From a virus (Duplodnaviria > Caudoviricetes): DNA of 64,000 nucleotides. Below the pieces are notes generated by a model. It did no database searches. It saw only the letters and a list, made by a program, of their open reading frames with translations, and was not told the origin of the DNA. Below are positions 50,647 to 63,165 of this stretch, one piece after another (within the stretch, counting starts at the first letter, position 1; each line of letters opens with the position of its first letter). The translations under genes were made by a program, and so were the position numbers. The stretch spans positions 1,546-65,545 of IMG/VR virus record IMGVR_UViG_3300036798_000278, one strand, 5' to 3'.

Positions 50647-51146
50647 GCACCAAGCGCCGCCACGGCGCCGATACCTACACACCGGAAATAGCAGAAGCTA
50701 TATGCGAGCGCATAGCTAACGGCACCGGCTTGGTAGCAGTATGCCGGGAGCCCACCATGCCACCCGAAACCACCGTGCTGTCATGGATTGAGCGTGAGCC
50801 TGCATTTGCTGAGAAATACGCGCGCGCGAGACAGCGGCAATATCAGCGTTGGGCTGAGGAAATCCTTGAGATCAGCGACGACGTCGCGCTCGATCCCAAC
50901 GACCGTCGCATCCGGGTCGACAGCCGCAAATGGCTGCTTTCCAAGCTCTTACCAAAGCAGTACGGCGACAAGATCGAGGTCAACACAACGATCAGCAAGC
51001 GCGCCCCGATCGAGCTTACGGACGCTGAGATACTCGCGGAACTGGGCGCGGCGGAGGCCGCCTCCGCACACAACCCAGGCAATCCGCCGCTCTTAGAGCA
51101 CGAGCCCGATCCGTCCCATACTCCGCCCTATACTAAAGACTCGTAA
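50643..51146 (+). CDS. terS: Terminase small subunit (Sf6 gp1-like)
   Basis: YTPEIAEAICERIANG...TVLSW...FAEKYARAR...RVDSRKWLLSKLLPKQYGDK. Confidence 0.92.
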   Translation: MSTKRRHGADTYTPEIAEAICERIANGTGLVAVCREPTMPPETTVLSWIEREPAFAEKYARARQRQYQRWAEEILEISDDVALDPNDRRIRVDSRKWLLSKLLPKQYGDKIEVNTTISKRAPIELTDAEILAELGAAEAASAHNPGNPPLLEHEPDPSHTPPYTKDS

Positions 51147-52675
51147 TGGGCTTCGACGTCGTTGACCGAAAGTTCCGCCCGGAGCTTTCGCCGCGGCGCC
51201 GTGAGCTGTTGCTGGAGACGATGGTGCGGAGGGGCGCACGGCAGAGCCTTGAGAGCTTCATTGAGGCAGTTTCGCCGGAGACCAAACCGGCTCGTCATCA
51301 CCGGCTGTTGTTAAAACACCTGGAGGATGTTGATAACGGTGTTATAACGCGGCTGATGATCTTCATGCCTCCGGGCAGTGCAAAGAGCACCTATGCGAGC
51401 ATCCTGTTCCCGCCCTGGTTCCTCGGGCGCAACCCTGAGCGATCGGTAATCGGAGCATCGCATGCCGGAGATCTTGCCGAGCGATTTGGTAGACGGGTCC
51501 GTAATATCGTTGGATCAACTGACTTTAGGCGAGTTTTTGGCTTTGGCCTATCCGGCGATAACGCTGCTGCTGGACGATGGGAAACAGAGCGCGGCGGAGA
51601 GTATTACGCTGTCGGCGTGGATGCGTCTGTTACCGGTCGCCGCGCGGATCTCGGGATCATTGACGATCCGGTTAAGGGACGAGCCGAGTCCGACAGCCTC
51701 ACGATCCGAGACCGCATCTGGGACTGGTACAAGTCGGACTTCTGGCCCCGGCTGAAGCCTGGGGGCCGTATAGTATTAATAATGACTCGGTGGCACGAGG
51801 ATGATCTCGCGGGACGTCTCATAGCTGAGCAGGGGAGCGGCGGAGAGCGCTGGAAGGTGCTCTCGCTGCCGGCTGAGGCTGGGGTTGATGATCCTCTTGG
51901 GCGGGCTCCGGGCGAGCTTCTATGGCCGGAATGGTTCAGGCCCGAGATGTTCGCCGAGGCCAAGCGCGACATGCGGAACTGGTCCGCGCTGTATCAGCAG
52001 GAGCCGACACCGGAAAGCGGCGACTACTTCGAGTCCAACTGGTTGCGCTGGTACGATCACGCTCCTCCGCTGGAGCACATGCGCATTTACGGCGCGAGCG
52101 ACTATGCGGTGACCGCTCAGGGCGGTGACTACACGGTACACGGGATCGCGGGCGTAGATCCTAACGATGACCTCTACCTACTCGATCTGTGGCGCAAGCA
52201 GACGTCATCGGATGTCTGGGTCGAGAATGGGCTTGACCTAATGGAACGCTGGCGGCCAATTATGTGGGCCGAGGAGAATGCGCAGATCGAGAAGGGTGTT
52301 GGACCCTTCATCAATAAACGTCAGGCCGAACGGCGACTATTCTTCTGTTACCGCAAACAATTCTCCTCGGCCCTGAATAAGGCGACCAAGGCGCAGTCGA
52401 TCCGCGGTCGGATGGCGATGGGGAAGGTGTACTTTCCTCGCAGGGCATCGTGGTCGGCTGATCTTGTATCGGAATTGTTACGGTTTCCGGCAGGCAAGAA
52501 CGATGATCAAGTCGATGTGCTTAGCCTGTTCGGGCGTATGCTGGACAGCCTTATACCGGGTCAGGTGCCGAAGGATGCGGAGCCGATGCGGGGGATGTAT
52601 GAGATGACGATGGATGAAGCTTGGGAGAAGTTAAAGCCCAAGCGCGACGCGCGCGAGTCGGAGTACATCATGTAA
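51146..52675 (+). CDS. terL: Terminase large subunit
   Basis: IFMPPGSAKS (Walker A), GIIDDPVKG (Walker B), IMTRWHEDDL, ASDYA and DDQVD nuclease motifs. Confidence 0.96.
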   Translation: MGFDVVDRKFRPELSPRRRELLLETMVRRGARQSLESFIEAVSPETKPARHHRLLLKHLEDVDNGVITRLMIFMPPGSAKSTYASILFPPWFLGRNPERSVIGASHAGDLAERFGRRVRNIVGSTDFRRVFGFGLSGDNAAAGRWETERGGEYYAVGVDASVTGRRADLGIIDDPVKGRAESDSLTIRDRIWDWYKSDFWPRLKPGGRIVLIMTRWHEDDLAGRLIAEQGSGGERWKVLSLPAEAGVDDPLGRAPGELLWPEWFRPEMFAEAKRDMRNWSALYQQEPTPESGDYFESNWLRWYDHAPPLEHMRIYGASDYAVTAQGGDYTVHGIAGVDPNDDLYLLDLWRKQTSSDVWVENGLDLMERWRPIMWAEENAQIEKGVGPFINKRQAERRLFFCYRKQFSSALNKATKAQSIRGRMAMGKVYFPRRASWSADLVSELLRFPAGKNDDQVDVLSLFGRMLDSLIPGQVPKDAEPMRGMYEMTMDEAWEKLKPKRDARESEYIM

Positions 52676-53176: not shown

Positions 53177-53641
53177 TCATGGTTCGTCCTTTTGTTTGGC
53201 GCGGCGGAGCTTCATCCTGCGGCGCATCACTTCGTTGAAGTAGGGCTTCAGTTCGGTGTCGGTCATCTGTGTTACGGGGGTCTCGGGCGATGGCGCGGTG
53301 TCAGGCTTGTCAGGGGACGGGACGGCGCGAGGCGATGTGGCGGGCGGAGGTGCTTGGTATAGTGAATTGTCCGGCGTGTGACGGCTCGGGCTGGGAGCAT
53401 TGCTGCGAGGGGCTTCGCGAGCAATCGGGGCTTTCTTCGGCGGTTCCGACGGCGCGAAGAACTGAAACCGCTCGCCCTTCTCTACCGCCTCGACAGCTTC
53501 GGCCATCAGGCGTTGATGGGGGAGCGGGGCTGCCGGAGGCTGGCCGATATCAAACTGGGCCGGAATTGGAATGCTCTCCCACACATGGGGGTCGCGCGGC
53601 CAGTGGGGGTTATGACAAAGGCGACAAATAGGCGGTTTCAT
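53177..53641 (-). CDS. Hypothetical protein with N-terminal CxxC..HW and a Pro-rich linker
   Basis: MKPPICRLCHNPHWPRDPH...YFNEVMRRRMKLRRAK. Confidence 0.6.
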   Translation of the reverse strand: MKPPICRLCHNPHWPRDPHVWESIPIPAQFDIGQPPAAPLPHQRLMAEAVEAVEKGERFQFFAPSEPPKKAPIAREAPRSNAPSPSRHTPDNSLYQAPPPATSPRAVPSPDKPDTAPSPETPVTQMTDTELKPYFNEVMRRRMKLRRAKQKDEP

Positions 53642-53665
53642 GATGCGTGTTTATAACACAGGGCG

Positions 53666-53941
53666 ATGCCGATGACAATTGTGTCTCGCTGGTGTTTAGC
53701 GGCGGCGGCGTTGGCGCTCTGCGTCGGTCGGGCGGAGGCGCAGCAAACGGCGGTGTCTCCTGCGCCTGATGAGGCAATGGTTATTCTAAAGACGGATTTT
53801 GGCCGGCTTGGGGCGGACGTATCGGAAGTGCTTGCCGGCAAGGATCGGGAGATCGCCGCGCTAAAGAAGCATGACGCGGAGCTGGATATGTATCTGAAGG
53901 CGTGCAGCGACAAGCCGGGGTGTACGGTTCCGGCGCAGTGA
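53666..53941 (+). CDS. Small secreted coiled-coil protein with a C-terminal Cys pair
   Basis: RWCLAAAALALCVGRAEA|QQ; ...KACSDKPGC. Confidence 0.65.
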   Translation: MPMTIVSRWCLAAAALALCVGRAEAQQTAVSPAPDEAMVILKTDFGRLGADVSEVLAGKDREIAALKKHDAELDMYLKACSDKPGCTVPAQ

Positions 53942-54192
53942 ATAATAGATGCGACAACTGCCGGTGGTTCGAAAGAGACCGGATTATCGATATGTATGAT
54001 GTCGAGGGAGAATGCCACAGGCACGCACCCATGCCTCATGTAATGTTTCCTAACTTTCATTCGGACGGAGTCGCCGTCGAGCATGAGAATACATGGGCAG
54101 TAGCTTATTGGCCAATTGTCAGCGCGGATAACTGGTGTGGCGATTGGATGCCGGCCGCGGTCTCGCAAAATGATCATGAGCCGAGCCGGTAA
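53938..54192 (+). CDS. Cys-rich small protein (paralogue A)
   Basis: CDNCRWF...GECHRHAP.P...WPIV...WCGDW. Confidence 0.7.
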   Translation: MNNRCDNCRWFERDRIIDMYDVEGECHRHAPMPHVMFPNFHSDGVAVEHENTWAVAYWPIVSADNWCGDWMPAAVSQNDHEPSR

Positions 54193-54193
54193 A

Positions 54194-54523
54194 ATGACCT
54201 ACGAGGAAGCGGCGGTTCATCTCCGGGGAATGGAAGCTCTCCAGAAAGACGGCTCCCTTAACTCGCTCGGTTGGTATCTCCGTTGGTCCCCCGGCAGCGA
54301 CGAGGCGACGCTTGACGGCGAGTTCACGGCCCATGACTTACTCGCTGTCTCTGTCTTCATGCGGGGGCCGGATGCTTCTCGCGCAATGAGGGAGCGGTGT
54401 CGGACGTGTGGAGACAGCGAGCTTCCGGGGATGGTATCGGCTGCGATCTTCCCTTCGGAACGAGGCGATGGACATCCGAAGCTGTGGGTTCGCTGTCCGG
54501 ATTGTGAGGGATCGGGGGATTGA
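54194..54523 (+). CDS. Zinc-finger hypothetical protein
   Basis: CRTCG...CPDCEGSG. Confidence 0.55.
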   Translation: MTYEEAAVHLRGMEALQKDGSLNSLGWYLRWSPGSDEATLDGEFTAHDLLAVSVFMRGPDASRAMRERCRTCGDSELPGMVSAAIFPSERGDGHPKLWVRCPDCEGSGD

Positions 54524-54702
54524 TGGTGATCCGCAAACCGCCGGTCACAAAGAAAGCGATGATAGATTGGCTCCAGGACAATCTTGATTATGCCGGCGTT
54601 CCCTATGAGGGAATGGGCCTGGATGAAGTGCCGATCGTCGAGAAAATCCTGGAGTTGGTTAAACGTGAAGGAAGCAAAAAAGGGGAGTGTCCCGTAAGAT
54701 GA
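54520..54702 (+). CDS. Small hypothetical protein
   Basis: 60 aa; overlaps at both ends. Confidence 0.5.
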   Translation: MMVIRKPPVTKKAMIDWLQDNLDYAGVPYEGMGLDEVPIVEKILELVKREGSKKGECPVR

Positions 54703-55922
54703 TGCGCAGGGCTTTGATCCCCGCAATTCTGGGGATAGCGGCGGGTTGCCCGGCTTATGCGCAGATCACGCAATGCCCGGTCCCGTACCTCTTGCAGAAC
54801 GGCGCGATTGCCGACGCCAGCCAGGTCATGACCAATCTCAACACCTTGAGCGCCTGCGCGGGGACGGTGCCTTTGGTGGTCACGATGGCCGGGACGCCGG
54901 CGCAGGGGCACGGTCTTACGATCGATCTGCGGACGACGCTTTCCGGGGTCAATACCACCGGGCCCACGACGGCAAATCTCCTGCACGGCATCAACAACGG
55001 GGTTCAGGGCGGCAGCAGTCAATTCGCGAGCACCTTGCTGGTGGAGCACGAGTTCGGCGGATCGACGGTGACCGGGGGACAAAACTCCCTTGAGGTCGAC
55101 GGGTATTTCAACGGCGGTGCGACCAGCGTCGGAAACGGGAACCGCAACTATGTCGGCGGTTTCTTCCAGATGGTCGGGTTCAACGGCGACGGCGGAACAA
55201 GTCCCTCAAGCCTCAACACCACGGCAGGATCTTTGTTCGGCATTGGGACATTCGGCGACGCGAAGGTGGGGACGGCGTTTACGAACGTTACGGGCGGCGA
55301 GATCAACGTTGCGCTCGAAACCGGCACGACGGCCGCCGAGAAGACCGGACTGCAGATTGTCGATCACGCTCTCGACAAGGTGGCGGGAACGTTGATCGAC
55401 GCGGCTCTGGCGATCGGCGCTCAACCGGGCGCCATAGGGTTCCAAAATGCGATTCTGCTGTCGGACGACAACGGCGCGAAGCCTTTGACGATTACGGCGT
55501 GCGTGATTTGTACGACCCCAAACAACGAGACGATCGGGACGGGAATAGATTTGAGCCAATACGTCATCATGGGGAATTTTCTTAATTCTGCGGGATTTTT
55601 TGTCACCGGCGCAGGGGCGATCTCGGGCATTGCGCAGTTTCTGACGGGGGCTAATCCAGGCCCGAGTTTTCAGCCGTCCCAGGCGCACGGCAGTTTCATT
55701 TCGTCGAATTTCACCAACGGCAGCAACGAAGTTGATCTGTTCAATATGGTCAACAATGCGGCGGGGTTTAATTTCTATCAGAAGACCACGGCGACCACGG
55801 GTGTCCTGGTCGCGACTCTTACGCAACATACCATCGTCATTCCGAACGCATCCACTTCGTGCTCAGGTTTGCCGACTGGGGCGCTTATCAATAATGCCGG
55901 CGTAGCCAATTTCTGCCCCTGA
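54699..55922 (+). CDS. Tail fibre/spike-like protein with a signal peptide, outside the tail module
   Basis: MMRRALIPAILGIAAGCPAYA|QI; PYLLQNGAIADASQVMTNLN resembles podovirus fibre N-terminal anchors; beta-rich body. Confidence 0.75.
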   Translation: MMRRALIPAILGIAAGCPAYAQITQCPVPYLLQNGAIADASQVMTNLNTLSACAGTVPLVVTMAGTPAQGHGLTIDLRTTLSGVNTTGPTTANLLHGINNGVQGGSSQFASTLLVEHEFGGSTVTGGQNSLEVDGYFNGGATSVGNGNRNYVGGFFQMVGFNGDGGTSPSSLNTTAGSLFGIGTFGDAKVGTAFTNVTGGEINVALETGTTAAEKTGLQIVDHALDKVAGTLIDAALAIGAQPGAIGFQNAILLSDDNGAKPLTITACVICTTPNNETIGTGIDLSQYVIMGNFLNSAGFFVTGAGAISGIAQFLTGANPGPSFQPSQAHGSFISSNFTNGSNEVDLFNMVNNAAGFNFYQKTTATTGVLVATLTQHTIVIPNASTSCSGLPTGALINNAGVANFCP

Positions 55923-56143
55923 TGGCTGAAGACGAGCCGGAAATCTTTTGCGAGACTTGCCGTTTTTACAGTTCATTTACGGGCGAGTGTCGTCGCTATG
56001 CGCCCAAGCCTCGATACTGGGGGAGGGTAACACGAGACAGCAAACTCCTTATAGATGAAGATGGAGATGACGGGCGTCTTAACGATGCATGCTGGCCAAA
56101 AGTCAATCATAGGGATTGGTGCGGAGAATTCGAGGCATTCTGA
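55922..56143 (+). CDS. Cys-rich small protein (paralogue B)
   Basis: CETCRFY...GECRRYAP.P...WPKV...WCGEF. Confidence 0.7.
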   Translation: MAEDEPEIFCETCRFYSSFTGECRRYAPKPRYWGRVTRDSKLLIDEDGDDGRLNDACWPKVNHRDWCGEFEAF

Positions 56144-56146
56144 GTT

Positions 56147-56425
56147 ATGATGCTTAGCACCCTGGCCCGCGCTTTGCTGACGAGCAGGCGGCCGGAGTCC
56201 CGCTATTACGTCCGCCATGATGATTTCGTCGAATTAGCGCGCGCGGTTCGCGACGCGACAGCTAAGCGGGGCCGCGGCTATTATGCGGACAGCTCGGTGC
56301 GCCGCGACAATTTCTTATTTCGGGCGGTAGCGATTTGCTGTCGGCAGCATGCTGTTTGCTTGCCTGTGGACCTTACGCCGCGTTTGCTGATCGACGGAGA
56401 CAGCATCAGGGGGCGTAATGGCTGA
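56147..56425 (+). CDS. Small hypothetical protein
   Basis: 92 aa; stop lies within the ATGGCTGA junction repeat. Confidence 0.5.
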   Translation: MMLSTLARALLTSRRPESRYYVRHDDFVELARAVRDATAKRGRGYYADSSVRRDNFLFRAVAICCRQHAVCLPVDLTPRLLIDGDSIRGRNG

Positions 56426-56528
56426 TTATGCCGGCTTAAAGCGCATCGCAGTAGTGGCTAAAACATTGATTATTACCGCCGCAGTCGTGCTCGTTGCGGC
56501 TGTCGGTTGGCTGGCGGTAAATGGCTGA
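56418..56528 (+). CDS. Membrane micro-protein (36 aa) starting with a portal-like MADYA
   Basis: MADYAGLKRIAVVAKTLIITAAVVLVAAVGWLAVNG. Confidence 0.5.
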   Translation: MADYAGLKRIAVVAKTLIITAAVVLVAAVGWLAVNG

Positions 56529-56799
56529 TTGCGCCGCTCCCAAGTTGAGTGGTAGGGCGCAGACTATAATAAGCCTAATGAAAGGGGTTCGGCCTCATTG
56601 GACGGATTTTGATTTTGATCAGTATAAAAATGGGGAGTGGTGGCGTATTACGGATATACCGAATTTTGCTGTAAAGACCGCAAATGAATTAGTTGCCGCC
56701 AAATTAATAGAACGCGATCCGTTCTATCCGCGATATCGGCTGCTCCGGCGTCAGGATCAAGAGGCAGACTTTGGCGATCTCTGGATAAGCGATGGCTGA
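56521..56799 (+). CDS. Small hypothetical protein starting with a copy of the portal 5' end
   Basis: MADCAAP versus portal MADYAAP; AT-richer body. Confidence 0.6.
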   Translation: MADCAAPKLSGRAQTIISLMKGVRPHWTDFDFDQYKNGEWWRITDIPNFAVKTANELVAAKLIERDPFYPRYRLLRRQDQEADFGDLWISDG

Positions 56800-58390
56800 T
56801 TACGCCGCTCCCAACAATGCGATCGAGACGCGCGACGATCTTGGGAAAGACCCAGGTGGTGTCGTTGCGTTCTGGCTGCAGCAACTCAAGCTCGCCGAGC
56901 GCGAGGACCGCAAATTCGTCGAGCGCGGTCGCGCGATCGTGAAGCGCTATCGGAATGAGCAGCCGCGGGCGGCGACGACACGCCGGCCGGCGCGGTTCAA
57001 TGTATTTTGGAGCAATGTCGAGACCTTGAAGCCGATCCTGTACGGGCGCACGCCAAAACCTGATGTGGAGCGCCGGCATAAGAACAACGACGCGGTCGCC
57101 AGGCTCGGCGCGATGATCCTCGAACGGGCCCTAGCATGGGAAGATGACCTGGACGAGTTCGACGATGTCATGCAGTCGGTCGTGGAAGACCGTCTCATAC
57201 CCGGTCGTGGGGTCGCGCGGGTGTATTACGAGCCGAAATGGGGTGATCCCGAGGAAGATCCGGATGAGGAATCAGAAAAACCAGACGATGAATCTGAACC
57301 TGGAAGAACTAAACCGGGTGAGCGCCCGACTTTCCGCCCTGTTGAGAGCGAGCGAGCTCCAGTCCGCTATATCTTTTGGGAAGATTATCGAGAAAGCCCA
57401 GCCCGCAGTGAGCATGAAGTGTGGTGGAAAGCCTATCGGACCTACCTGACGCGGGATGAGCTGAGAGAGCGCTTCGGCAAGAAGATCGGCGACGCGATCA
57501 CGCTGGATTATACCCCGCGAGGGTTGGGGGATGACGGCGAGACCGGGCCGCAGGCCGATGCCTTCAAAAAGGCTCAGGTATGGGAGATTTGGGACAAGAA
57601 GAAAAAGCAGGTCGTGTGGATTGCGCCGTCCTACAAGGACAAGCCGTGCGACACCAAGGATGATCCGCTGGAATTGCCGGGGTTTTTCCCCTCTCCTCGG
57701 ACATTGACGGCGACGACTACGAACGAGACGCGCTCGGCGGTTGCTGATTACACGGAATATCAGGATCAGGCGCTCGAACTTGACGTGTTGACGTCGCGGA
57801 TCGACCGCCTGCAGCGCGCTCTGAAGGTGGCGGGCGTTTATGCGGGACCGCATAAGGCGACGATCGAACAATTGGTCGATGAAACGTCGGAAAATAGACT
57901 AATTCCGGTCGAGGATTGGGCGGCTTTCATGGATAAGGGCGGCGTCCAGAATATGATCCTATGGTTGCCGATCGAGCAGGTCGCCAAAGTGCTGGTATCG
58001 CTCTACCAGGCGCGCGACAAGGTATTGCAGACGCTCTACCAAACTACGGGAATGGCCGACATTCTGCGCGGCGAGACGAACCCGACCGAGACTTTGGGCG
58101 CGCAGCAATTGAAATCGCAGTTTGCGACGCGGCGCATCTCACGGGCGCAGAAGCAGGTGGCGCGGTTTGCGCGCGATTTGATGCGGTTACGGGGATTTGT
58201 GATTGCGCGGCACTTCGCGCCGGAAATGCTGATGAAAATGACGGGACTGCCGGAGCCGTTGCCGGAATTGCCGCCGACGCCGCCGATGATGGTGCCGGCG
58301 CCGCCGCAGCAACCGCAAGCACCGCCGCAACCTGGACCTCAACCTGGCGGTAATGTCGTGCCGCATCCGGCGATGACTGGGGCCGCATAG
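56792..58390 (+). CDS. Portal protein, N-terminal part
   Basis: RFNVFWSNVETLKP.LY.RTPKPDV.RR...DRL.PGRGVARV.Y...AQVWEIWDK...FFPSPR.L.AT.T...ETLGAQQLK.QF. Confidence 0.9.
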   Translation: MADYAAPNNAIETRDDLGKDPGGVVAFWLQQLKLAEREDRKFVERGRAIVKRYRNEQPRAATTRRPARFNVFWSNVETLKPILYGRTPKPDVERRHKNNDAVARLGAMILERALAWEDDLDEFDDVMQSVVEDRLIPGRGVARVYYEPKWGDPEEDPDEESEKPDDESEPGRTKPGERPTFRPVESERAPVRYIFWEDYRESPARSEHEVWWKAYRTYLTRDELRERFGKKIGDAITLDYTPRGLGDDGETGPQADAFKKAQVWEIWDKKKKQVVWIAPSYKDKPCDTKDDPLELPGFFPSPRTLTATTTNETRSAVADYTEYQDQALELDVLTSRIDRLQRALKVAGVYAGPHKATIEQLVDETSENRLIPVEDWAAFMDKGGVQNMILWLPIEQVAKVLVSLYQARDKVLQTLYQTTGMADILRGETNPTETLGAQQLKSQFATRRISRAQKQVARFARDLMRLRGFVIARHFAPEMLMKMTGLPEPLPELPPTPPMMVPAPPQQPQAPPQPGPQPGGNVVPHPAMTGAA

Positions 58391-58497
58391 TGCCGTGTCG
58401 GTGGTTTCATCGCTGGACGTTGGTGCGCTCTCACGGAGGAGAGTTGATTTATCGGTGCGCGAGATGCGGAGCGCATAAGACATTGCTCCTGCAATGA
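58390..58497 (+). CDS. 35-aa Zn-ribbon-like micro-ORF inside the portal locus
   Basis: GTG start overlaps the portal TAG; MPCRWFHRWTLVRSHGGELIYRCARCGAHKTLLLQ; TGA overlaps the next ATG. Confidence 0.55.
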   Translation: MPCRWFHRWTLVRSHGGELIYRCARCGAHKTLLLQ

Positions 58498-59291
58498 GCG
58501 AGCTCCGCGGTCCCGCGCCCCCAATGGGCGGACCGCCCCCCGGCATGATGCCGCCGCAACCGCCGCCGATGCAGGTCAACCCGGCCTATCTGCAGTGGAT
58601 GCAGCAAAAGCAGCAGTGGGACGCCGAGACACAGCGCCGGCAAAAGCAATTCACGGCGGCGTGTCAATTGATCAGCGAGGATGCGGCACAGTCGTTCAAG
58701 ATCGATATCGAGGCCGACAGCACGATTGCGGCGGACGAGCAGGAAGAAAAGAAGTCGCGCACCGAATTTTTGCAGGTCATGACGCCGTTCCTTGAAGCGA
58801 TGATCCCGATTGCGCAACAAAACCCGCCGCTTCTGCCGTTGGTTACGGAATTGGTTATGTTCGGGGTGCGCGCGTTCCCGACGTCACGGCAGTTGGAGGA
58901 CGCATTCGAGACGGCGTTGCAGAAATTGGCGCAGATGCCGCCCGCGCCCCCGCCGCAGCAAGGCGGCAAGTCCAAGTCGCCGATGGAGATCCAGGCTGAG
59001 GCGCAAACCGCAGCCGGGCAGCAGAAGGTTGATATGGCTGAGACCGCGGCGAAGGCGCAGAGCGAGCAACAATCGACGGCCGCCAAGGTGCAGACCGACC
59101 AGCAGGCGAATGCGATCAAACTCCAGCAGATTCAAGCTCAAATGCAGATCGAGCGTGAGCGGCTGGCGGCGGAACAAGATAAGAATGCGGCCGACTTGGC
59201 GATGCGGGGGCGCGAGGTTGAGGGGCGCGAGACGATGGAACAGGCCAAAATTCAGCATATGCAATCCAAGGAATTGACGGGGCTGGTATGA
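58494..59291 (+). CDS. Portal protein, C-terminal part (separate ORF)
   Basis: QLISEDAAQSFKIDIEADSTIAADEQEEKKSRTEFL...ELVMFGVRAF...LEDAF, then a Gln-rich barrel-type coiled coil. Confidence 0.8.
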   Translation: MSELRGPAPPMGGPPPGMMPPQPPPMQVNPAYLQWMQQKQQWDAETQRRQKQFTAACQLISEDAAQSFKIDIEADSTIAADEQEEKKSRTEFLQVMTPFLEAMIPIAQQNPPLLPLVTELVMFGVRAFPTSRQLEDAFETALQKLAQMPPAPPPQQGGKSKSPMEIQAEAQTAAGQQKVDMAETAAKAQSEQQSTAAKVQTDQQANAIKLQQIQAQMQIERERLAAEQDKNAADLAMRGREVEGRETMEQAKIQHMQSKELTGLV

Positions 59292-59479
59292 ACTTCACCA
59301 AACTAACACGACTGGACGGCGAGCCGGTCTATGTCGGCGACAGCGGTTCGGTGATCCAAGAGGCTGTCGCAGACCAGTCGACACCGAAAGCCAAGACCGA
59401 AATCTCGTGGGGCGGAACTACATTCTTTGTGACGGAGCCGCTTGATATCGTATTGCATAGACTGGAATCGATGAAATGA
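59288..59479 (+). CDS. Small hypothetical protein
   Basis: FTKLTRLDGEPVYV...TFFVTEPLDIV; ATGA overlap. Confidence 0.65.
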   Translation: MNFTKLTRLDGEPVYVGDSGSVIQEAVADQSTPKAKTEISWGGTTFFVTEPLDIVLHRLESMK

Positions 59480-59489
59480 ACGGTCTCCG

Positions 59490-59663
59490 ATGATGAATGA
59501 GCGGCAAATCTTGGAGATGCTTGGATATCTACGCTCGATCGACGAGAAGCTGGAAGGTATCCTTGGAATACTGCACCGCGGTTTACGACATTCGGATCAG
59601 CATTACCGGGCGGCGATCCGCGAAGGCGACCCTCGCGAGGGTGTGCCGGAGAGCGGGGCATGA
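59490..59663 (+). CDS. Small hypothetical protein (57 aa)
   Basis: Hand translation MMNERQILEMLGYLRSIDEKL...; ATGA overlap with the next gene. Confidence 0.5.
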   Translation: MMNERQILEMLGYLRSIDEKLEGILGILHRGLRHSDQHYRAAIREGDPREGVPESGA

Positions 59664-62127: not shown

Positions 62128-63165
62128 ATGGCAAGTCCGAATACCAATTGGTCGGAAATCACGACCACGACCCTCTATAACCGCTCGCGCAAGCTGGCGG
62201 ACAACGTCACGAAAAACAATGCTTTGCTCGCTCGATTGTCCGAGAAGGGCAAGGTTAAGACCTTCGACGGCGGTCAAGCGATCGTCCAAGAGCTGGAATA
62301 CTCGGAAAACGGCACTTACAAGCGCTATTCCGGGTATGACATCCTGAATATTACGCCGTCCGACGTTTTCACTGCGGCGCAATACCCGATCGCGCAAGCC
62401 GCGGTAGCAGTTTCCATTTCCGGCCTGGAAATGCTGCAAAACGCCGGCCGCGAGCAGATGATCAATCTGCTGGAGGCCCGCATCGGCAATGCCGAACGCA
62501 CTTTCGAGAACAACCTGTCGAGTGACTGCTACAGCAACGGCACCGCAGACGGCGGGAAGCAGGTTGGCGGACTTCAGCTATTGGTGGCTGATGTTCCGAC
62601 CTCCGGTACTGTCGGCGGGATCAGCCGCAGCCAATGGCCGTTCTGGCAAAACAATGTCGGATCGTTTGCCACAGCCGGCCTGACGCCGGGAGCGGCGACG
62701 ATGCAGACGATGATGAATCGCACATGGTTGGCTCAGGTGCGGCAGGCGGATCGCCCGGACATCGCCATCGCCGACAATGTGTTCTTCCGGTTTTACTGGG
62801 AATCGCTGCAGGCAATTCAGCGCATCACGAACGAGCGTTTAGGTGAGGCGGGATACGCCAATCTCAAATTCATGGATTGCGATGTGGTGTTCGACGGCGG
62901 CTTCCAAGGCGTCGCGGCCGGTCAGGGAACGGGCGTCATCGACGGCGCGGGCCACACGTGGACATCGGGCTCCGGCGCCCCGGCCAACCATATGTACTTC
63001 CTCAATACGGAGTACATTTTCTTCCGGCCGCACCGCGAACGCGACATGGTCCCGCTCGATCCGGACCGTTTCAGCGTCAATCAGGACGCAATGGTCAAGC
63101 TGATCGGCTGGGCCGGAAACCTTTGCATGTCCAATGCGTTCCTTCAAGGCGTTTTGACAAACTGA
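62128..63165 (+). CDS. Major capsid protein
   Basis: EITTTTLYNRSRKLADNVTKNNALL.RL..KG..KTFDGG..IVQELEY.EN...YSGYD.L...WAGNL..SN. Confidence 0.93.
   Translation: MASPNTNWSEITTTTLYNRSRKLADNVTKNNALLARLSEKGKVKTFDGGQAIVQELEYSENGTYKRYSGYDILNITPSDVFTAAQYPIAQAAVAVSISGLEMLQNAGREQMINLLEARIGNAERTFENNLSSDCYSNGTADGGKQVGGLQLLVADVPTSGTVGGISRSQWPFWQNNVGSFATAGLTPGAATMQTMMNRTWLAQVRQADRPDIAIADNVFFRFYWESLQAIQRITNERLGEAGYANLKFMDCDVVFDGGFQGVAAGQGTGVIDGAGHTWTSGSGAPANHMYFLNTEYIFFRPHRERDMVPLDPDRFSVNQDAMVKLIGWAGNLCMSNAFLQGVLTN

Follow-up and report, generated by a model that had tools for sequence, protein, structure and literature searches.

A portal gene in two pieces: conserved and recurrent division of a phage portal within a proline-rich linker

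To our knowledge the portal is a single chain in every phage that has been studied, and structural, assembly and annotation work alike treat it as an invariably single-chain dodecamer. What, then, should be made of a viral genome in which the portal reading frame stops inside a proline-rich linker, and portal-type sequence resumes downstream in another frame? The question is raised by a stretch of 64,000 nucleotides (nt) of DNA from an uncultured tailed phage of the short-tailed type, hereafter the window (positions 1,546 to 65,545 of IMG/VR record IMGVR_UViG_3300036798_000278), which covers nearly the entire 65.5-kb viral contig, a record whose CheckV completeness is given as 100%. The original prediction, made from the letters and a list of open reading frames (ORFs), had placed a split portal gene at 56792-59291, with a stop codon (TAG) at 58388-58390, a restart (ATG) at 58494 and a 35-codon micro-ORF at 58390-58497 filling the gap, and had offered two readings of it, a portal made of two chains or a ribosome that bypasses the gap. 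All of these coordinates are correct when checked on the sequence. As described below, the two ORFs belong to one portal family, and the break between them is shared by a whole clade and recurs in other lineages. The explanation that we favour, with a probability of about 0.85, is that the gene has been split in a disordered Pro-rich loop into two separately translated chains, which would be produced by coupled translation and assemble non-covalently, and that the seam between them has become a slot for small genes.

One portal family in two reading frames

The upstream ORF (ORF1, hereafter the N half; 56792-58390, plus strand, 532 residues) comprises the wing, stem, clip and tunnel-loop region and a long wing helix, followed by a Pro-rich tail, and it matches positions 9-473 of the 715-position profile of PHROG 12082, a portal family, with an E value of 7.5e-148. 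The downstream ORF (the C half; 58494-59291, plus strand, 265 residues) has a Pro-rich head, a long helix, a wing strand motif, crown helices and a long barrel helix, and matches positions 509-705 of the same profile (E 2.5e-29), which bears out the claim that portal-type sequence resumes at ATG 58494. Since successive positions of PHROG 12082 are matched, the two ORFs are, as judged from the profile, adjoining segments of one portal family, well beyond what chance would produce. Jointly they span the whole profile on two chains, and at gene level the portal is no longer a single one; the profile positions left unmatched between the halves fall in the low-complexity linker. Outside PHROG the halves have few recognisable relatives: neither gave a significant Pfam match, a sequence search of the PDB with the N half or the C half found no relative, and a blastn comparison of the region with 50,697 phage records returned no match.

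The junction itself is compact. The N half ends in a Pro/Gln-rich tail (about residues 488-532; 58253-58387) that contains a conserved G-x-N-V-V-P-H-P motif, terminates in Ala-Ala and is predicted to be disordered from the equivalent stretch of a fused relative. The TAG that follows overlaps the GTG start of the micro-ORF by a shared G (TAGTG, 58388-58392), an overlap also present in the related contig L016, and the TGA stop of the micro-ORF in turn overlaps the ATG of the C half (ATGA, 58494-58497), the C half lying in the third frame relative to the N half and the micro-ORF. At seven loci, namely the window, L002, L016, L017, L018, L014 and Bradyrhizobium phage ppBjS10J-1, the C half begins with an ATGA or GTGA overlap. 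Because stop and start overlap so tightly at these loci, we infer that translation of the C half is coupled to termination upstream, and the conserved start codons together with the overlaps point to separate translation of the two halves. No Shine-Dalgarno-like purine run was found in the 20 nt 5' of the C-half start in the window, and a scan of 56400-59600 for promoters and terminators gave counts that were not above those of shuffled sequence.

To which part of a portal does each half correspond? Fold comparison was done with the AlphaFold2 (AF2) model of P0175, the closest fused relative (798 residues, 51% identical to ORF1). This model has a confident body to about residue 487, then a linker of about 75 residues (about 488-562), mostly with a predicted local distance difference test (pLDDT) score below 50, which is where the cut falls; the linker is followed by a 40-residue helix, a short strand (604-608) with a D-I-E-A-D-S-T-type motif, three helices and a terminal helix of 94 residues (703-796). 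Alignment to intact relatives, as had been suggested for mapping the break, therefore put it in the disordered linker of single-chain portals. Compared with solved portals the model gave Z scores of 21-27. Specifically, VIA-align superposed it on P22 gp1 (8eao_B) with a Z of 23.4 and a root mean square deviation of 3.7 Å over 343 residues (model 23-671 on chain 1-511), and on the PaP3 and N4 portals over model residues 15-686, across both parts. The alignments to SU10, Pan3, GP4 and N4 extend into the barrel helix, those to SU10 and N4 reaching model residues 754-757, and in fused relatives the canonical wing and crown of the P22, PaP3 and N4 portals are matched in superposition by the first ~120 residues of the C part.

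The C half of the window, when modelled alone with AF2 (mean pLDDT 81), shows a helix at residues 30-66, a loop bearing the motif, helices at 79-147 and a last helix at 163-262. The near-invariant D-I-E-A-D-S-T motif occupies residues 71-77 (58704-58724) and corresponds to the β-strand in the model of the fused relative, and the last helix, of about 100 residues (58980-59279), resembles the barrel of P22- and N4-style portals. No Foldseek match to this isolated model was obtained at E up to 0.001, an expected outcome for a helical fragment. According to these models the N half supplies the clip, the stem, the tunnel-loop region and most of the wing, and the C half the last wing strand, the crown and the barrel, which are canonical parts of a portal and not an accessory domain.

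Conservation and recurrence of the break

Two independent contigs from other samples, L002 (89% identity) and L016 (98% in the C half), are cut at exactly the same residues as the window, with the N half ending in ..HPAMTGAA before the stop and the C half restarting with MSELRG. Separate halves are also found in a large set of protein clusters drawn from JGI, ENA, NCBI and Logan assemblies. In a search with the N half, every cluster with at least 59% identity to ORF1 proved to be N-only, with lengths of 506-651 residues plus one of 735 residues that is also without the C part, and in a FastTree phylogeny the 67 N-only clusters (59-100% identity to ORF1) fall into a single clade with 100% support. 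When proteins of similar length were searched with the C half, about 97 clusters of stand-alone homologues (156-404 residues, 36-98% identity) were recovered. Their initiator methionines align, and their D-I-E-A-D-S-T motif and C-terminal G-L-V are nearly invariant: across 89 C halves D71, I72, E73, D75, S76 and T77 are invariant and A74 is conserved in at least 90%. The strand motif is equally invariant in split and fused forms. Moreover, at all ten loci where both ends are visible (the window and nine others) the C half lies downstream of the N half on the same strand.

Fused portals appear among the next relatives. Of those with about 50% identity, 34 are fused proteins of 728-843 residues, and the sister clade mixes 27 fused proteins (728-843 residues, near the 532 + 265 of the window) with 17 N-only ones. 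At the two loci of the sister clade where split status was checked, the N half is followed by a small gene and a separate downstream C half, with lengths of 537, 108 and 276 residues in L034 and 519, 56 and 251 residues in L035. Further away the portals are fused in one frame of about 660-840 residues, as in L004/5, L007-9, L013, Mx8 gp45 (663 residues), the Rhizobium phage RHph_I3_18 (783 residues) and the Brucella Tb/Pr group, and nine prophages in genomes of Alphaproteobacteria, Terriglobales and Gemmatimonadaceae likewise carry a fused single-chain portal. Two further split lineages were nevertheless found. One comprises prophages in three isolate genomes, those of Acetobacter okinawensis, A. 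lovaniensis DSM 4491 and Asaia astilbis JCM 15831; the other is represented by ppBjS10J-1, where the TGA stop of the N-half coding sequence (CDS) overlaps a GTG and the C part, with the motif R-I-D-V-E-T-D-S, continues in another frame. At least four split lineages are well separated by fused relatives, and an IQ-TREE phylogeny of 41 representatives implies at least 6-7 changes between the split and fused states, a number that is soft since support was limited to the Shimodaira-Hasegawa-like approximate likelihood ratio test. As far as can be judged from sequence, the split is ancient, defines a clade and has recurred in independent lineages.

For one of these lineages particles have been described. 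Bradyrhizobium japonicum S10J releases DNA-containing podophage particles whose DNA maps to a single prophage, in a report that does not mention the portal (PMC10127595). Since this prophage is ppBjS10J-1, a genome of the split type makes filled particles. In GenBank both portal halves of ppBjS10J-1 (OP596615.1; L019:2438-4713) are called 'hypothetical protein', and the second CDS (WAX24479.1) is annotated as beginning about 60 codons past the GTG that overlaps the N-half stop, so that the conserved R-I-D-V-E-T-D-S is omitted. As regards hosts, a metagenome-assembled genome of a Stellaceae bacterium in NCBI carries the N and C halves P0153 and P0042 on the adjacent locus tags VGF07_01955 and VGF07_01960; this is the only host hint for the clade of the window, and it could be a binning artefact.

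In the window the split portal sits where a portal is expected in a packaging and head module, downstream of the large terminase gene (TerL, 51146-52675; PHROG 38, E 2.5e-115) and upstream of the gene for the major head protein (62128-63165; PHROG 9953, E 6.8e-112). About 4 kb (53177-56799) separates TerL from the N half, and contains three opposite-strand ORFs and a 411-residue protein with a signal-peptide-like N terminus (54687-55922); in most relatives TerL is followed by a few small genes and then the portal.

Content of the seam

What lies between the halves varies greatly. In L014 and L018 they abut, with a GTGA overlap and nothing between them. One seam gene is present in the window, L034 and L035, two small genes in L017, and three in a 65-kb contig that carries P0009. 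The gap of L016 measures about 430 nt and holds three ORFs, the micro-ORF and two genes of 56 and 54 residues; that of L002 (about 700 nt) holds five small coupled ORFs, one of which is a homologue of the micro-ORF; and that of L015 extends over about 3 kb and includes two opposite-strand genes and a protein of 716 residues. As the content ranges from none to about 3 kb among relatives, the seam acts as an insertion slot.

Insertion of a homing endonuclease was considered as the cause of the break and rejected, as no endonuclease was detected among the gap proteins examined and the gaps of L014 and L018 are empty. Specifically, no resemblance to a homing endonuclease was found by Pfam in ten gap proteins (from L002, L015, L017, L034 and L035) or in the micro-ORF of the window. 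The sole Pfam hit among the gap proteins was one borderline LIM/zinc-finger match, and a PHROG scan of four gap proteins of L002 and L015 gave none.

The micro-ORF of the window (58390-58497, plus strand, GTG start, TGA stop) encodes 35 codons with the pattern C-x3-H ... C-x2-C-x2-H. It had been suspected to be a selected insertion rather than a sequencing error, and it is indeed a real, conserved small gene, though one that is not specific to portals. Compared with its homologues in the same gap, it is identical at 100 of 108 nt to that of L016 and at 66 of 108 nt to that of L002, the latter with 9 synonymous and 16 non-synonymous codon differences, and Cys3, His7, Cys23, Cys26 and His29 are invariant among the three. 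The product is probably a mini zinc ribbon. Neither Pfam nor PHROG gave a match. An exhaustive profile search of 1.84 billion representatives returned only two convincing relatives, of 37-40 residues. The better one, P0222 (40 residues, E 2.6e-11), belongs to an unrelated phage whose portal is T7-type (Head-tail_con), where it is encoded between the genes for the small and the large terminase, and the second lies within a string of small coupled genes. Given this occurrence elsewhere, the micro-ORF is not part of the portal and is best described as a rare, free-moving small gene of intergenic slots in packaging modules. On the P0222 contig (JGI 3300050821, 6942 nt) another gene of 56 residues follows, so that a second kind of packaging module likewise contains a row of tiny coupled genes.

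Some features of the seam genes may bear on how they are inserted. In L016 the seam gene for a zinc-finger-like protein of 56 residues (L016:1799-1969) opens with MSELRG, the same six residues as the C half (L016:2127-2924; 58494-58501 in the window), and because both begin in this way, insertion of the two-gene cassette appears to have involved a duplication of the C-half start region. ATGAG[CT]GA opens most seam genes. The string ATGAGCGA occurs 8 times in the window, several of them at gene starts, against 3.0 expected, and none of 100 shuffles reached 8. It may provide micro-homology for cassette shuffling or may merely reflect a common Met-Ser-Asp/Glu start, and the count is suggestive only.

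In one subgroup the N half finishes in a conserved tail, ..G-R-H-Y-V-P-D-P-x-R-P-G-K-Y-L-M-V-A, and the seam gene that follows it encodes a protein with repeated [LI]-x-P-V-D-H-D-P-F motifs. These repeat proteins measure 716 residues in L015 (2613-4763), at least 290 residues in L003 (5959-6831) and 60 residues, with three copies of the motif, in L017 (5607-5789); they had no Pfam match (L015 and L017) and no PHROG match (L015). The co-occurrence of tail and repeats suggests an interaction through short linear motifs at the portal. A second conserved motif, G-x-N-V-V-P-[FH]-P, is C-terminal in 13 of the 67 N halves, those of the subgroup to which the window belongs, and N-terminal in 18 of the 94 C halves. 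In its wider form, G-x-N-V-[VTM]-P-[FH]-P, it lies 5' of the cut in the window (58340-58366) and 3' of the cut in C-half heads among P0019-P0094, while the rest of the linker is variable, and the motif itself is likely to be functional. Because it lies on either side of the cut depending on the lineage, the position of the cut is not fixed, and either the seam has drifted or cuts arose more than once.

Readings of the break and comparison with known systems

Of the two readings originally offered, the two-chain portal is the one that is strongly supported, by a break conserved across the whole clade and by a C half that is a widespread stand-alone gene with its own start. How might it have arisen? 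Fission would have taken place inside the long disordered Pro-rich loop that links the body of wing, stem and clip to the last wing strand, the crown and the barrel. A single insertion or deletion (indel) in the GC-rich, repetitive Pro/Gln/Gly/Ala codons of this linker would have terminated the N part soon after, and reinitiation at a nearby ATG or GTG would have restored the C part. The 265-residue C half would now be begun at its own ATG through termination-reinitiation coupling, relayed in the window through the 35-codon ORF (TAGTG, then ATGA), and this coupling would hold the two chains near 1:1. Both would join non-covalently in each of the 12 subunits to form a 12+12 ring, in which the C half contributes the wing strand with its D-I-E-A-D-S-T motif, the crown helices and the barrel helix. 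Portal function would have been kept because the loop that is cut is disordered and exposed at the surface, and the parts pack together within the subunit. After fission the seam would be a neutral slot in which small genes are gained and lost, the micro-ORF being one passenger, and its cargo could vary because insertions at the seam no longer destroy a reading frame.

Several points limit the case for a two-chain portal. For its own junction the window depends on independent contigs (L002 and L016). For ppBjS10J-1, which was sequenced with long reads, an indel error at the split is possible. Where the halves abut (L014, L018, the Acetobacter prophages and ppBjS10J-1), a programmed frameshift that fuses them is possible as well. 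Prediction of a complex between residues 1-505 of the N half and 25-265 of the C half gave a score of 0.57 against 0.00 for the best control, with runs that agree in at least 76% of contacts and a partner pLDDT of at least 69, which was rated as weak support for the pairing: the pass mark is reached by 58 of 80 solved complexes and by 2 of 110 mismatched pairs, at scores of 0.60 or below by 7 of the 80 and by both mismatches, and a pass may reflect the model's memory of solved portals. Finally, in L012:982-3280 (IMGVR_UViG_3300036833_000205, 4769 nt) a C half 71% identical to that of the window stands directly after the large terminase gene with a 107-nt spacer, and the N half was not detectable on either strand of this 4.8-kb contig. 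This arrangement could represent unlinked halves, a deletion derivative or a chimeric assembly.

The last two points count towards the alternative that survives best, which we nevertheless regard as improbable, that the N half alone forms a working ring and the C half is an independent protein, scaffold-like or serving as a plug or in ejection, in non-stoichiometric amounts. P22 portals without the barrel still assemble, and the N half holds the clip, the stem and the tunnel-loop region. The C half also evolves faster, with 46-67% identity against 64-70% for the N half of the same genomes. Against this alternative, the superposition of the C part of fused relatives on the wing and crown of solved portals places it within the canonical fold, its strand motif is under the same constraint whether fused or split, and it keeps its position downstream of the N half on the same strand at all ten fully visible loci.

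A T4 gene 60-type translational bypass, or a programmed frameshift, would instead yield one chain of about 797 residues by hopping the 106-nt gap, and is very unlikely. The observation that had suggested it stands in part: the stop directly follows the would-be take-off codon, and the GCA before the stop (58385-58387) does match the GCA before the resumed ORF (58491-58493), but the putative landing codon is not conserved, being GAA in L002 and L017. L016 and L002 break at the same residue with 3-5 conserved coding ORFs before the C half, and a ribosome cannot hop distances such as that in L015, which includes opposite-strand genes. In addition, the gap encodes a conserved protein, and the C half always begins at an aligned ATG or GTG. 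The RNA of the gap is no more structured than shuffled sequence (minimum free energy -51.7 against a shuffled mean of -49.7 kcal/mol, z -0.51), 59 of 200 shuffles folding as well, and the bypass put forward in the original prediction is thus rejected.

The break could also be a sequencing or assembly artefact, or belong to the decaying pseudogene of a defective element. The contig comes from one metagenomic assembly, and Pro-rich DNA of low complexity readily suffers indels. We consider this extremely unlikely, however, given that the same break is found in L002 and L016 and in the N-only and C-only clusters from four sources of assemblies, that both halves are strongly conserved with stop and start precisely coupled, and that the record is rated complete. 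Finally, post-translational ligation by split-intein trans-splicing, or RNA splicing of a group I or group II intron, is effectively refuted: split-intein fractured genes and introns in phage structural genes are known (PMC2677866), but neither Hint/intein nor any other Pfam domain is present at either end (ORF1, ORF2; E up to 0.1), both ends being Pro-rich and of low complexity, no Rfam match, intron models included, was found in 58000-58900 at E up to 1, the 103-nt gap is coding, and the gaps of relatives hold several coupled ORFs.

Returning to the two-chain portal, a further step, and a rather doubtful one, would be to suppose that the cut makes the crown and barrel a separately dosed and exchangeable module, acting as a detachable valve or pressure sensor, that seam genes act on portal assembly or ride with the portal into the virion, and that the tails on the seam side are docking peptides. 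Candidate docking tails would be the ..VA or ..AA C termini, the GRHYVPDP..KYLMVA tail of one subgroup and the G-x-N-V-V-P motif that flanks the cut on one side or the other; candidate seam genes acting on the portal would be the Cys/His micro-protein and the PVDHDPF-repeat proteins of relatives. If the module were detachable, the amount, timing or allele of the C half could vary independently of the ring.

A two-chain portal would occur in a large natural clade and in several independent lineages, and a literature search for a split or interrupted phage portal found no paper, with a coverage that leaves out most subscription journals. Split portals would be a natural experiment on the roles of crown and barrel. 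The loop that joins these to the wing body would be a universally permissive break point, of use in portal engineering (nanopores, and tagging or display inside capsids). Culturable material of the split type is available in Bradyrhizobium japonicum S10J, Acetobacter lovaniensis DSM 4491 and Asaia astilbis JCM 15831. The split also explains a systematic failure of annotation, in which both halves become hypothetical proteins and the start of the C half is called too late, as in ppBjS10J-1. Moreover, it documents a hot spot of gene insertion inside what was formerly a single essential gene.

How does this locus compare with known systems? The single-chain portals of podophages with a barrel (P22 gp1, 8eao; Sf6 gp3, 7sfs; N4, 9yf5; PaP3, 7sya; SU10, 7z44) are alike in fold, as judged from the P0175 model, and have the long barrel helix, and the portals of PHROG 12082 (Mx8 gp45, Brucella phages Tb/Pr and Rhizobium phage RHph_I3_18) belong to the same sequence family as the halves of the window. 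In both groups the portal gene is likewise placed after the large terminase and ahead of the major head protein. They are, however, one polypeptide, whereas in the window the linker that precedes the last wing strand, crown and barrel is interrupted, and other genes separate the two parts. With the bypass of T4 gene 60 the locus shares a stop right after the last sense codon and, in the window, a GCA that also precedes the resumed frame; it differs in a coding gap of 106 nt that grows to 3 kb in relatives, in a matching codon that is unconserved, in having no significant take-off structure and in a conserved downstream start.

The nearest described phenomenon is that of the genes-in-pieces of T4-like phages, such as nrdA of Aeromonas phage Aeh1, which is split by mobE (PMC3045599), and the T4 topoisomerase genes 39 and 60 (reviewed in PMC2988022). 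Here too an essential gene is present as two ORFs, separately translated as we infer, with foreign ORFs between them and a product that would be reassembled non-covalently. As in Aeh1, the host gene is retained in two ORFs, but no homing endonuclease (GIY-YIG, HNH or LAGLIDADG) was found in the gaps examined. In contrast to the genes-in-pieces of T4-like phages, the gap is empty in several lineages, the split appears to be ancient, clade-defining and recurrent, and its target is not an enzyme but a structural ring of twelve subunits.

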